NCBI GenBank assembly: GCA_028708425.1
Contig: JAQVYY010000008.1
Coordinates: forward strand, 7,799 to 71,798
Length of the DNA stretch: 64,000 bases
Direction of reading: 5' to 3'
Source: Bacteroidales bacterium
GTDB taxonomy: Bacteria; Bacteroidota; Bacteroidia; Bacteroidales; Tenuifilaceae
The notes under the pieces are model-generated. The model saw nothing but the letters and a program-made list of their open reading frames with translations. It made no database searches and was not told where the DNA came from. The translations under genes were made by a program, and so were the position numbers. This document shows, piece after piece, positions 56,504-60,033 of this stretch (positions are counted from its first letter, which is position 1; every line of letters starts with the position of its first letter).

Positions 56504-57493
56504 ATGGCCTCGATGAATTTTGTTGATTATGTGAAGATCTTTTGCCGGTCGGGAAAAGGGGGTGCGGGTAGTACGCATCTTAGACGAGAAAAGTTTGTGC
56601 CTAAAGGTGGCCCCGATGGGGGCGACGGTGGGCGAGGAGGGCATGTTTACCTAAAGGGGAACGACCAGCTGTGGACTCTTATCCATTTAAAGTACCAACG
56701 ACACATTTTTGCTGGGCATGGGGCTGCTGGAAGTGGCAGCCGAAGCACAGGTGCCGATGGTAAGGATGTTACCATTGAGGTGCCTTTGGGAACCGTGGCT
56801 GTTGATGCTGAAACCAAGGAGGTGGTATGCGAAATTACCGAGCACGGACAGGAAATTGTTTTAAAGAAAGGCGGTAGGGGTGGCCTTGGAAACTGGCATT
56901 TTAAATCGTCCACCATGCAAACCCCCAGATTTGCGCAACCCGGTGAGGATAGTGTGGAGGGTTGGGTTATTCTTGAGCTGAAAATATTGGCCGACATTGG
57001 TTTGGTTGGCCTTCCGAATGCTGGTAAATCAACCCTGCTATCTACCATAACTGCTGCCAAACCCAAAATTGCCGACTATCCCTTTACAACGCTAGTCCCC
57101 AATCTAGGTATTGTACCCTATCGCAACGGCCGCTCGTTTGTTATTGCCGATATCCCTGGAATTATTGAGGGTGCTCACGAGGGTAAAGGGCTTGGGATCC
57201 GTTTTTTGCGACATATAGAGCGAAACTCGATGCTGCTTTTTATGATACCCATTGATAGCCCCAACATTATTGAGGAGTATAACACATTGATTAACGAGTT
57301 GAGCCAGTTTAATGTTGAGCTGCTCGATAAGCAGCGTATGCTAGCCATAACAAAGTGCGATATGGCCGATGATGAGATAAAAGCTGCGGTTGAAAAAGAG
57401 CTGCCCGACGTAAAAAGTGTTTTTATCTCATCGGTATCGGGCGAAGGGATTACTGAGCTAAAGGATATGCTTTGGGATGAGCTGAATGGTTGA
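56504..57493 (+). CDS. obgE: GTPase ObgE/CgtA
   Basis: [26 protein letters not shown] and DIPG motifs. Confidence 0.97.
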
Positions 57494-57504
57494 GACAGTT
57501 GATG

Positions 57505-57513
57505 GTTGAGTGC
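57505..57513 (+). other. Putative cassette core site GTTGAGTGC (GTTRRRY)
   Basis: Fits GTTRRRY and is nearly complementary (7/9) to GCACACAGC at the start of the downstream palindrome. Confidence 0.45.
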
Positions 57514-57585
57514 AAGCCTAAAAAAGACAGCAAAGCGACAGGAAACCAAAAAAACAGAGATAAAATAAACCTGTAGGTTGATTAA

Positions 57586-58110
57586 GTGAAAATAGTTCGT
57601 ATCTTTGCAGACCAATTATTTGCTTTTCATTATGAAACTGAGGCTGATAATGTGTTGCGTAAATTATTATCGTTATGGAACGATATAGCGCATTTACACC
57701 AGTTTGTCATGCGGCACAAAGCCGATGTGCCTCAAAACCTACCCATACCAACATTAATCAGTCAACTTATTGATAATGCAAACCACATTGATGATACGCT
57801 CAATGAAATATCAACAGCCCCACACAGGAGTTTGGAAGAATTTTTCAACCCCCTGAATAATCAAGAATACCACATTGTGGAACTATCGAAGCAGAAAGGA
57901 AGAAAGAACTATTTGAGATTATATGCGATTAGAATTGACAAGAACTGCTTTGTGATTACAGGTGGTGCAATAAAATTTCACCACTTAAACAGAGACCGGC
58001 CGCATACACAACAGGAAATGAAAAAAATAGACAAATGCCGAAATTACTTAAAAGACAATGGCGTATTTGATGTAGATTCATTTCATGAATTTTTAAAAGA
58101 ACAACAATGA
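57586..58110 (+). CDS. Putative HigB/RelE-superfamily toxin with N-terminal extension (TAC toxin)
   Basis: C-terminal LRLYAIRIDKNCFVITGGAIK...QEMKKIDKCRNYL resembles the Gp49/HigB pattern; first gene of a coupled trio. Confidence 0.6.
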   Translation: MKIVRIFADQLFAFHYETEADNVLRKLLSLWNDIAHLHQFVMRHKADVPQNLPIPTLISQLIDNANHIDDTLNEISTAPHRSLEEFFNPLNNQEYHIVELSKQKGRKNYLRLYAIRIDKNCFVITGGAIKFHHLNRDRPHTQQEMKKIDKCRNYLKDNGVFDVDSFHEFLKEQQ

Positions 58111-58568
58111 CAAACAAGGAGAAATTACTTCAGCTAGTTTCAGGAGAAGACACCAAAACAATCGCTGAGGTAAAGCAGCGAATAAAAAGCCGTGCAATGT
58201 TGCATGAATCGCAACAAATTGCCATAAAGGTGTTTATGAAATTAGACGAATTAGGTTGGTCGCAAAAAGACTTAGCGAAAGAAATGGGAGTCTCTCCACA
58301 ACAAATCACAAAAATCGTAAGCGGTAAAGAAAACCTAACCATTGAAACGCAAATCAAGTTGCAGCATATTTTGAATATCCCTGTATTGGCAAGCTACTAC
58401 GAAAACAAAATGGCTGAAATGGAAGAATGGATTCTAACTATTGAAAAGCGGGTAGAAAGCATAGCTGCACAAACGTTACACATCAGCGACAATTATCAGG
58501 CTACTAAAACCGTGAGATTGGAAACTTATCATTATTCACAAGAGTTCTATCAACTTCTAGCTGTATAA
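58107..58568 (+). CDS. XRE-family HTH antitoxin (HigA-like) with C-terminal tail
   Basis: WSQKDLAKEMGVSPQQITKIVSGKENLTIETQIKLQHILN helix-turn-helix; ATGA overlap with the toxin. Confidence 0.85.
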   Translation: MTNKEKLLQLVSGEDTKTIAEVKQRIKSRAMLHESQQIAIKVFMKLDELGWSQKDLAKEMGVSPQQITKIVSGKENLTIETQIKLQHILNIPVLASYYENKMAEMEEWILTIEKRVESIAAQTLHISDNYQATKTVRLETYHYSQEFYQLLAV

Positions 58569-59014
58569 TGAAAAAAAATAACACACAAGTAGAGTTTGCA
58601 TTGCAAGGAATAAAAACCGAGCAATTCGCCATTTTTGAAGAAAACTATGCCTCTAAAAAAGAAACAGGTTTAAGCACTGAATTACAGTTTAAACTAGACC
58701 AAAAAAACAAACAGATTGGAGTGTTTCTTGGGTTTGAATTTATTCAGGGAAAAAAGATTTTTCTGAAGATTCAAGTTAGCTGCCATTTTAAGATTAAAGA
58801 AAATTCTTGGACACATTTTATTCAGGAAGAGAGCAACAAACTAGTTGTACCCAAAATATTTTTGGCACATTTAGCAATGATAACCACAGGTACAACAAGG
58901 GGTGTATTATTTGCAAAAACAGAGTCAACACCATTTTATAAATTTATCGTTCCAACATTAAATGTAGCTGAAATGATTAAAGAAGATGCTACGTTTGATA
59001 TGGTTGTTGAATAA
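58568..59014 (+). CDS. SecB-like chaperone (TAC chaperone)
   Basis: 148 aa, four-strand then helix pattern; C-terminal FLAHLAMITTGTTRGVLFAKTESTPFYKFIVPTLNV parallels the SecB helix and LP.xN motif; TAATG overlap. Confidence 0.7.
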   Translation: MKKNNTQVEFALQGIKTEQFAIFEENYASKKETGLSTELQFKLDQKNKQIGVFLGFEFIQGKKIFLKIQVSCHFKIKENSWTHFIQEESNKLVVPKIFLAHLAMITTGTTRGVLFAKTESTPFYKFIVPTLNVAEMIKEDATFDMVVE

Positions 59015-59040
59015 TGGACGAATTATAAAACAGAACGCCA

Positions 59041-59175
59041 GCACACAGCATGGGTTTTGCTTTAGGCGGTGGGACGTGCAAACTTGATGTTTTGCGCTTC
59101 TATTTAAATTTTTTGCTGGCTCACAGTCTTGTGTTCCGAAACCCGCCCGAGCGTAAAACCCGGAAACCGTTAGTT
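59041..59175 (+). other. attC-like imperfect palindrome (135 bp)
   Basis: GCACACAGC...GGGTTTTGCTTTAGGCGG / CCGCCCGAGCGTAAAACCC...GTTAGTT; begins 27 bp after the chaperone stop. Confidence 0.55.
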
Positions 59176-59215
59176 TAACAACATATTGAAACTCTAATTC
59201 CGTAAACCTAGTACT

Positions 59216-59785
59216 ATGCTCGAGTGGATTTTGAATTTAGATACGCAGCTTTTCCTTTTCTTAAACGCGCTGCACACCCCTTTTTTCGACCCCATAATGA
59301 TTTTTATGTCGGGTAAGTTAACGTGGTTACCCCTTTACCTAATCATTGTGCTATTTATGTATAAGCGCTTTGGGTGGCGATTTGTTTGGCCCCTGCTGGG
59401 GATAGCGTTGGTTGTTGTTTTGGCCGATCAAAGCTCGGTACATCTATTTAAGGATGTTTTTCAGCGTTTGCGCCCTTGTCGTAATCCTGATATTAAGGAC
59501 TTAATTTACTTGCCAACTGGGCGCTGTGCTGGTGGTAGGTTTGGTTTTGTATCATCGCATGCAGCTAATGTATTTGGTGTGGCAACTTGCTTGGCGTTGC
59601 TGATAAAAAAACGCTGGTTTTCCATTCTTATATTGATTTGGGCTGCCCTAGTTTCGTATAGCCGCATTTATCTTGGGGCGCACTACCCCGGCGATGTGAT
59701 CTTTGGCGCCATCCTAGGCGCTATTGTTGGCTACTCGGTATGGAATTTGCTCTATGGTATAAACCGCGTAAAGCCAATACTGTAG
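59216..59785 (+). CDS. PAP2 family phosphatase
   Basis: KDVFQRLRP, FVSSHAAN and SRIYLGAHYPGD motifs. Confidence 0.92.
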   Translation: MLEWILNLDTQLFLFLNALHTPFFDPIMIFMSGKLTWLPLYLIIVLFMYKRFGWRFVWPLLGIALVVVLADQSSVHLFKDVFQRLRPCRNPDIKDLIYLPTGRCAGGRFGFVSSHAANVFGVATCLALLIKKRWFSILILIWAALVSYSRIYLGAHYPGDVIFGAILGAIVGYSVWNLLYGINRVKPIL

Positions 59786-59802
59786 GGCAAAATATTGTTT
59801 TG

Positions 59803-59893
59803 TTAGTCGAGCCCAATTTTGGGTAACAAGATTTGGGTAAGAGGTTTACTTGCTGTTGGAAATCCCAATTATTCGAATTAATAATTGGGGTTA
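59803..59893 (+). mobile_element. MITE-like repeat family 1, copy 14 (right module only, degenerate)
   Basis: TTAGTCGAGCCCAATTTTGGG...AATAATTGGGGTTA. Confidence 0.75.
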
Positions 59894-60033
59894 AAGTAAC
59901 CCTGGAGTTGTTTCATTCCCAAAACATGTAGGTAAGTTAGTAGTTAATTGTTTATATTTGCATAGTACGCAACGCATAGCAACTTATGTAAATTTTTTGT
60001 ATAGTTACCGAGAATCTTTAACTTTCCAAGCAT

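Follow-up and report, generated by a model that had tools for sequence, protein, structure and literature searches.

A horizontally acquired Bacteroidales operon, probably a HigBAC-type toxin-antitoxin-chaperone module, with a predicted and highly divergent SecB-fold third protein

We analysed a three-gene operon at positions 57586-59014 of a 64,000-nt stretch of DNA (the window) from a Bacteroidales bacterium of the Tenuifilaceae (GenBank assembly GCA_028708425.1, contig JAQVYY010000008.1, positions 7,799 to 71,798 of the forward strand). This operon is probably a horizontally acquired toxin-antitoxin-chaperone (TAC) module of the HigBAC type. The TAC-like reading had been proposed in an initial annotation of the same DNA, and it is now supported by the predicted folds of the encoded proteins, by the conserved toxin-antitoxin-chaperone (T-A-C) gene order, and by covariation between the antitoxin and each of its two partners.

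All three genes lie on the + strand. Gene 1 (57586-58110) encodes a putative toxin of 174 aa from a GTG start, gene 2 (58107-58568) a putative antitoxin of 153 aa with an XRE-type helix-turn-helix (HTH) domain, and gene 3 (58568-59014) a 148-aa protein with a predicted SecB fold, the putative dedicated chaperone, which resembles SecB-TA and falls into the PADLOC family PDC-M64C. Stop and start codons overlap at both junctions (ATGA between genes 1 and 2, TAATG between genes 2 and 3), in agreement with the overlaps that had been described. The GTG start of gene 1 is backed by an ATG at the same place in all homologues, and a G>A variant at position 57586, within this codon, occurs in another strain.

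The same arrangement recurs across the Bacteroidota. We collected 29 loci from species-representative genomes, 26 of which offered enough sequence around the module to judge gene order. The order gene 1-gene 2-gene 3 was kept at 26 of these 26 loci, mostly with -4/-1 overlaps and down to 24-33% identity, and this confirms that the three-gene arrangement is more than chance. It is the layout of a tricistronic unit in which a putative type II toxin-antitoxin (TA) pair is followed by a gene for a predicted SecB-like protein. The loci span Sphingobacteriia, Flavobacteriales, Saprospiraceae, Spirosomataceae, Crocinitomicaceae and Bacteroidales, and identities of 68-82% across classes indicate horizontal spread. 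Neither obg nor PAP2, the genes that flank the operon in the window, stands beside the module at any of the related loci. All three proteins have hundreds of close relatives, labelled hypothetical, in Bacteroidota metagenome bins, and an exhaustive profile search placed the gene 3 family at 1165 clusters at 50% identity (696 at E<=1e-10), with nearly all members 140-150 aa long. One complete module, 74-80% identical to the one in the window, lies on a 5.2-kb contig binned as Sulfurimonas sp. (L003, WFPU01000112.1); its assignment to a metagenome-assembled genome of the Campylobacterota is probably a binning error, with cross-phylum transfer as the alternative.

Among the three proteins, only the product of gene 2 is recognised by general libraries. 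Its HTH (residues 46-92; 58242-58382) matches Pfam HTH_3 above the cut-off (3.6e-12, 46.6 bits), in agreement with the clear XRE HTH reported initially, and the protein also scores against the HigA equivalog TIGR02607 of NCBIfam, below the 47.7-bit cut-off (2.4e-9, 36.9 bits). The HTH is flanked by an N-terminal segment that co-varies with the toxin (residues ~1-30; 58107-58196) and by a C-terminal, ChAD-like tail that ends in LAV (residues ~97-153; 58395-58565). Published ChAD elements are C-terminal, variable in length and sequence, and recognised via aromatic residues; the ChAD of Mycobacterium tuberculosis HigA1 ends in a Val-Ala ClpXP degron.

The gene 2 tail appears to fit these published features, as a variable, aromatic-bearing C-terminal extension. 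Across 141 distinct homologues, conservation within the protein is lowest here (pairwise identity 0.25-0.43, versus ~0.9 for the HTH). Even so, the residue is aromatic in 97-98% of sequences at positions 97, 98 and 130, in 89% at position 143, in 72% at position 148 and in 61% at position 108; the conserved aromatics of the tail are Y97, Y98, Y130 and Y143. The protein ends in two aliphatic residues, mostly -AV, in 90 of the 141 homologues (64%), whereas among 2277 long open reading frames (ORFs) of the same genome the background is 5.7% for such ends and 0.2% for -AV. The tails of distant relatives are unalignable and rich in Ser, Thr and Asn, with scattered aromatics and a retained -A end.

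The AlphaFold2 model of the gene 1 product (65-sequence alignment; pLDDT 90, pTM 0.87) is consistent with a RelE-like fold, in which a beta-sheet core packs on N-terminal helices. Its best matches in the PDB, searched with Foldseek, were to the HigBA module of Streptococcus pneumoniae (6af4/6af3; E 4e-3, prob 0.96-1.0, TM-score by target 0.5-0.58), with Vibrio cholerae HigB2 and then the ParE toxins ParE2 and ParE1 as further matches. The model supports a fold-level link, in which gene 1 would encode an extended HigB/RelE-ParE protein with extra helices. The motif RLYAIR..VITGGAIK..EMKK, from which a HigB/Gp49-like toxin had been proposed, lies at residues ~110-147 and is better conserved than any other block of the family; within it, R111 and K130 are kept across toxin subtypes. 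That proposal has held for the motif and for the fold, and it did not carry over to sequence membership in the HigB, Gp49 or ParE families of Pfam.

The model of the gene 3 product (53-sequence alignment; pLDDT 78.6, pTM 0.71) consists of four long antiparallel strands (residues 10-22, 33-44, 49-60 and 63-76) and, after them, a long helix (96-114). In Foldseek the top 12 PDB matches of this model all have the SecB fold (prob 0.99-1.0, E 6e-4 to 9e-3). They include SecB of Escherichia coli (1qyn) and Haemophilus influenzae (1fx3), the SP1558-like structures 2o2a and 2hng, and 5mtw, which is the M. tuberculosis SecB-TA protein Rv1957 bound to the HigA1 ChAD peptide. Structural comparison, a check that had been suggested for each protein, returned HigB/ParE-type matches for the first and SecB-fold matches for the third. 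Judged from its model, the third protein is likely to be linked to SecB at the level of fold; the SecB-like assignment stands in that respect and fails as a statement about sequence family. No housekeeping SecB is encoded in this genome, and to our knowledge the Bacteroidota are a phylum without one.

In the gene 3 family, conservation peaks in a block at residues 95-120 (PK.F..HLA..TVGT.RGILHAKTE), in the long helix and beyond it. This block contains two residues, R111 and G112, that are invariant across 141 sequences at 35% mean identity. It could be an oligomer interface or a specific binding site.

The expectation that standard annotation would miss the module was correct for the general libraries; Pfam, NCBIfam and PHROGs gave no family for genes 1 and 3. 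The specialised tool PADLOC does recognise the module, and its profile hidden Markov models (HMMs) match all three proteins: gene 1 matches PDC-M64B (6.4e-6) and PDC-M64A (4e-4), gene 2 PDC-M64B/C (1.5e-13) and gene 3 PDC-M64C (1.2e-14). All component HMMs of PDC-M64 are matched by adjacent genes here, and the locus would be called as that system. Gene 3 also has a weak match (0.011) to PD-T4-9_C, the CmdC chaperone family. Two CmdC models were matched by 15 of 141 gene 3 relatives (best 1.2e-4), and apart from PDC-M64C, to which all 141 have a match, no PADLOC family other than PD-T4-9_C recurs among them.

Comparison among loci points to a division of labour within the antitoxin. We correlated pairwise distances across 18 loci, with partial correlations controlling for the HTH. 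The antitoxin N-terminus tracks gene 1 (r=0.78, partial r 0.76) and the tail tracks gene 3 (r=0.83, partial r 0.81), versus r of 0.25-0.34 for the cross pairs. The toxins fall into two subtypes, one at L002, L006, L008-L013 and L018 and the other at L001, L003-L005, L007 and L014, which are combined with near-interchangeable antitoxin cores and chaperones. Gene 1 identity is 0.73 and 0.65 within these subtypes and 0.41 between them, whereas gene 3 is indifferent to the split (0.72/0.73 within, 0.71 between) and gene 2 follows it only at residues ~16-30 (0.69/0.66 within, 0.47 between). This covariation fits a TAC, in which one end of the antitoxin neutralises the toxin while the other is held by the chaperone, and it is in line with the demonstrated graftability of ChAD/SecB pairs.

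We propose the following mechanism, in which toxicity, RNase activity, chaperone dependence, operator binding and any anti-phage role are all inferred. Gene 1 would encode a toxin of the RelE/ParE superfamily, most likely a translation-dependent mRNA endonuclease. Gene 2 would form a dimeric XRE-HTH antitoxin that neutralises the toxin with its N-terminal ~30 residues, represses the operon by binding of its HTH to a palindrome ahead of gene 1, and is made unstable by a tail that acts both as a ChAD element and as a protease degron. The gene 3 product, a very divergent SecB-fold chaperone, would bind this tail and keep the antitoxin soluble and protected. If the chaperone were titrated, as might happen with an abundant structural protein of a phage or with other unfolded clients, the antitoxin would be lost, the toxin released and translation arrested.

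The palindrome invoked above is part of a motif, ATAAACCTGTAGGTTGATTAA (57565-57585, + strand), that stands directly before the start of gene 1 and that we propose as an operator. It recurs as ATAAACCTATA(A/G)GTTGATTTnATG before the gene 1 start in nearly all loci, at >90% identity, and ends 3-4 nt ahead of the start codon. Within it lies a near-perfect 12-bp palindrome, AACCTGTAGGTT (57568-57579), with the family consensus AACCTA-TAGGTT. The palindrome may be the operator of the HTH antitoxin, and the motif possibly overlaps a Bacteroidota-type promoter near the start codon; a sigma-70 promoter scan gave chance-level counts with a tool that does not cover Bacteroidota promoters. Between loci there is no conservation further upstream of the motif or downstream of gene 3, and the motif also marks the left end of the mobile unit.

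Loss of gene 1 in other lineages offers a separate view of its likely effect on the cell. In most contigs of one lineage, an in-frame internal deletion of 438 bp (146 codons) has removed the body of gene 1 and left genes 2 and 3 intact. The deletion joins MKI to the last 25 codons of gene 1, with the 5' motif, the start codon and the gene 2 coupling preserved; its product is a 28-codon mini-ORF, MKIKYRDYLKDNGVFDADSFYEFLKEQQ, that overlaps the antitoxin start (L031:5457-5543, and also L032, L033 and L035-L038). Upstream of this mini-ORF are a KilA-N gene and an unknown 145-aa gene. Genes 2 and 3 of the deletion lineage give the same match figures as those of L034, where gene 1 is intact, and the gene 3 sequence of this lineage is present on 162 contigs. 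At two further loci (L028 and L029) gene 1 has independently undergone an internal deletion, here out of frame, and genes 2 and 3 are decaying too. The toxin gene has thus been deleted alone at least twice. Such deletions with genes 2 and 3 retained are the expected decay path of a TA module, and toxin-less 'AC' modules are known from the SecB-TA/TAC literature. Repeated deletion is the one basis on which we regard gene 1 as the presumptive harmful component.

The persistence of genes 2 and 3 without gene 1 on so many contigs might also mean that this pair has a function of its own. The roles would then be permuted, with gene 3, or genes 2 and 3 together, as an effector pair and gene 1 as a sensor or modulator. 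We consider this very improbable. The SecB fold has no known toxic activity, gene 3 has stayed intact in every lineage without signs of being selected against, and AC remnants are the expected result of toxin loss from a TAC.

In the window, the operon is a horizontally acquired, low-GC insert of ~1.6 kb, with approximate limits at 57571-59181 (+ strand) that are set by the loss of blastn homology and by a dip in GC. As the initial annotation had stated, it sits between two housekeeping genes, encoding the Obg GTPase upstream (PF01018, 8e-59) and a PAP2 phosphatase downstream (PF01569, 2e-24), within a housekeeping run that extends from hpt, adk and obg to alanine dehydrogenase. GC is 0.32-0.37 in the operon versus 0.40-0.52 in its flanks and AT skew climbs within the operon to +0.2 to +0.3, so that the A-richness remarked on earlier is real. 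In blastn against the closest congener (G007), homology is lost between window positions 57570 and 59182. A close copy of the operon is present in none of 14 other species of the genus, two of which have only remote matches at 26-27% identity.

The hpt-adk-obg ... PAP2 backbone itself is conserved in the genus, and the obg-PAP2 gap varies. In one congener (G004) the gap is ~60 bp, an empty site; in another (G001) it holds an overlapping ParD (PF03693)/ParE (PF05016) pair and a 123-aa ORF (L058:2000-2519); and in G007 it is occupied by a gene for a 148-aa protein that is unrelated and has a hydrophobic N-terminus (L056:2583-3029). Because its contents differ between species, the gap appears to be a recurrent landing site for small accessory modules. 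Searches for flanking direct or inverted repeats that might be insertion scars gave only short, chance-level matches.

The 3' end of the insert is a spacer of 167 bp (59015-59181, + strand) in which a terminator-like hairpin (59076-59097) precedes a T-rich run; in a terminator scan the number of hairpins was at chance level, and an Rfam scan of the insert gave no match. A compact insert that ends in such a spacer, with one GTTTAAC heptamer near the right boundary, might suggest a solo integron-type gene cassette with an attC site. We rejected this candidate as extremely improbable. The spacer is unconserved between loci, its single-stranded DNA folds no better than shuffled sequences (z -0.12 and -0.19 for the two strands), one degenerate heptamer is expected by chance, and conservation outside the genes is confined to the 5' palindrome.

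Several observations weigh against the assignment of this operon to the TACs, beginning with gene 3. Pfam SecB (PF02556) matches neither the gene 3 product nor 141 diverse relatives, and neither the protein nor its profiles find a sequence in the PDB. When a profile of diverse gene 3 proteins was aligned by hhalign with E. coli SecB (the sequence used was verified as identical to 5jtl_A), the probability was 1.5% and only the first beta-strand aligned. In addition, the model is weak at residues 115-130, the Foldseek TM-scores are only 0.3-0.5, and the invariance of R111-G112 within HLA..TVGT.RGILHAKTE is stricter than expected of a passive holdase.

These properties bear on a rival explanation, in which the operon is an ordinary two-component HigBA-like TA pair and gene 3 is a co-transcribed accessory that is not the chaperone of the antitoxin. 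Such an accessory might sense phage directly, regulate the toxin, or be an enzyme whose fold is SecB/hot-dog-like. Beyond the missing sequence-level membership in SecB, it is the invariant pair and the conserved helix block, which resemble a specific site, that speak for it, together with the hot-dog thioesterases, the next fold group among the Foldseek matches (from E 0.065). The hot-dog matches, however, are 20-100 times weaker than the 12 SecB-fold matches. Moreover, divergence of gene 3 tracks the antitoxin tail and not the toxin, gene 3 stays with gene 2 when the toxin is deleted, and weak matches to the CmdC models recur in the family. On balance we regard an accessory role for gene 3 as unlikely, although it is the strongest of the rivals considered here.

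Gene 1 also falls short of a straightforward toxin assignment. It matches no Pfam family, including HigB_toxin, Gp49 and ParE_toxin, and eight divergent relatives likewise match no toxin family in Pfam. Sequence and profile searches of the PDB returned nothing meaningful, and a Foldseek search of a viral structure library nothing significant. TM-scores across its PDB matches are moderate (0.4-0.58 by target, E ~1e-3), and the candidate catalytic residues H133 and H140 are not retained in distant relatives. The operon might be no TA system at all and instead a regulatory cassette of a mobile element, a switch made of a Gp49-like protein and an XRE repressor in which gene 1 is non-toxic. Gp49-like/XRE pairs are frequent in prophages, some loci have KilA-N, Mob_Pre and phage lysozyme genes as neighbours of the module, and gene 1 has no universally conserved catalytic residues. 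Four points argue the other way: the best fold matches of gene 1 are bona fide toxins, gene 1 alone is repeatedly deleted from intact gene 2-gene 3 pairs, a ParDE pair occupies the same site in a congener, and most loci lie outside prophages. We therefore give this explanation little credence, less than the accessory role for gene 3.

Two further reservations attach to the antitoxin. The -AV end is not universal, since a 143-aa subclass comprising 22 of the 141 antitoxins stops at a conserved Tyr (-IDY). The covariation, for its part, is confounded by linkage: each end of the antitoxin abuts its partner gene, so that recombination within the conserved HTH-coding region would produce the same pattern without physical interaction. 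Lastly, none of the papers in the library searched mentions PDC-M64.

The exact operon is found in metagenomes from landfill, sediment, sludge, biogas, wastewater and manure, dated 2016 to 2025. Metatranscriptome contigs of one wastewater sample cover 57270-57995, 58241-58669 and 58972-59292; their depths of 5.6-7.6 resemble those of obg and PAP2. Parts of gene 1 are also covered in two more RNA-type runs. Support for transcription from these data is weak because DNA carry-over is possible in a metatranscriptome. Contig depth in the metatranscriptome reaches 44-86 at window positions 59748-59995, in the intergenic region between PAP2 and alanine dehydrogenase, versus 5-9 in the adjoining genes, which could reflect a multi-copy repeat or an abundant small transcript.

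With respect to defence, the copy in the window has no defence-related genes nearby; its neighbours are housekeeping genes. The PDC systems of PADLOC, to which PDC-M64 belongs, are 145 candidates proposed by 'guilt-by-embedding' in BREX, DISARM and type I restriction-modification (R-M) loci, and PDC-M64 is a label without a described mechanism. Other copies of the module have more suggestive surroundings. In one setting the module lies beside a conserved UvrA-like gene, and its downstream neighbour alternates among type III R-M Mod and Res, Mrr and Fic; other copies stand beside a type IIG enzyme or near AbiEi. Among 122 neighbours at 26 loci there are type I methyltransferase and specificity subunits, type IIG enzymes, MADS mad3/mad5, Mob_Pre and phage lysozyme, along with many housekeeping genes (145 Pfam families in all). 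N6_Mtase accounts for 3 of the 122 neighbours versus 5 in the whole genome, a crude enrichment of ~15-fold with no matched control. An anti-phage role is plausible from this context and by analogy with HigBAC, CmdTAC and MqsRAC, and we would put it at an even chance at best; the alternative is plain addiction or selfish maintenance.

The closest known relatives in organization are the HigBAC TACs of M. tuberculosis (Rv1955-Rv1956-Rv1957, encoding HigB1, HigA1 and SecB-TA) and of E. coli NT1F31. The operon described here shares with them the T-A-C gene order, a toxin of predicted RelE/HigB fold, an XRE/HigA-type antitoxin with a variable, aromatic C-terminal extension and an aliphatic end, a third gene for a predicted SecB-fold protein, and a signature of horizontal transfer. 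The antitoxin of M. tuberculosis ends in Val-Ala, and those of the present family mostly in Ala-Val. In contrast to the HigBAC TACs, the chaperone is not SecB by sequence, the toxin is long (174 aa), with extra helices and no Pfam family, and the host belongs to the Bacteroidota.

CmdTAC of E. coli, formerly named PD-T4-9, is likewise a tripartite TAC with a SecB-like chaperone as its C component, and its anti-phage role is proven. No other characterised system has a chaperone HMM that matches gene 3. Its toxin CmdT, however, is an mRNA ADP-ribosyltransferase and its antitoxin CmdA is not of the XRE type, whereas the toxin here has a predicted HigB fold. The two-gene HigBA/Gp49-XRE pairs (S. 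pneumoniae HigBA, 6af3/6af4; V. cholerae HigBA2) provide the best structural matches to gene 1 and share the toxin-first order and the XRE antitoxin, but they have neither a third gene nor a long antitoxin tail, and their toxins are ~110-120 aa.

Together, these comparisons place the operon in a kind of system that is already known, the HigBAC-type TAC, and in a Bacteroidota family that is large, sequence-cryptic and flagged as a PADLOC candidate. Earlier TAC catalogues began from sequence-recognisable SecB, mostly in Proteobacteria and Actinobacteria, and for this reason a large Bacteroidota family was invisible to them. A broader interpretation joins several of our observations, and we offer it tentatively, as more likely to fail in some part than to hold as a whole. 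It would make PDC-M64C, with its 1165 clusters invisible to Pfam SecB, a sequence-cryptic branch of the SecB fold that serves the Bacteroidota as an exchangeable module for sensing phage. The antitoxin would act as an adaptor with two ends, its N-terminus matched to interchangeable toxins and its tail to the chaperone, and the toxin-deleted AC units would be maintained derivatives, kept as functional units, for instance for anti-addiction or for immunity to incoming elements that carry a TAC.

The finding leaves the concept of TAC action unchanged. Its comparative data predict a toxin-binding segment (gene 2 residues ~16-30), a chaperone-binding segment (the tail) and an operator (the 12-bp palindrome), and the natural toxin-less variant is a ready control. 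If confirmed, the TAC assignment would validate one PADLOC candidate and would extend chaperone-gated abortive infection to the Bacteroidota, including organisms of anaerobic digesters and related habitats.

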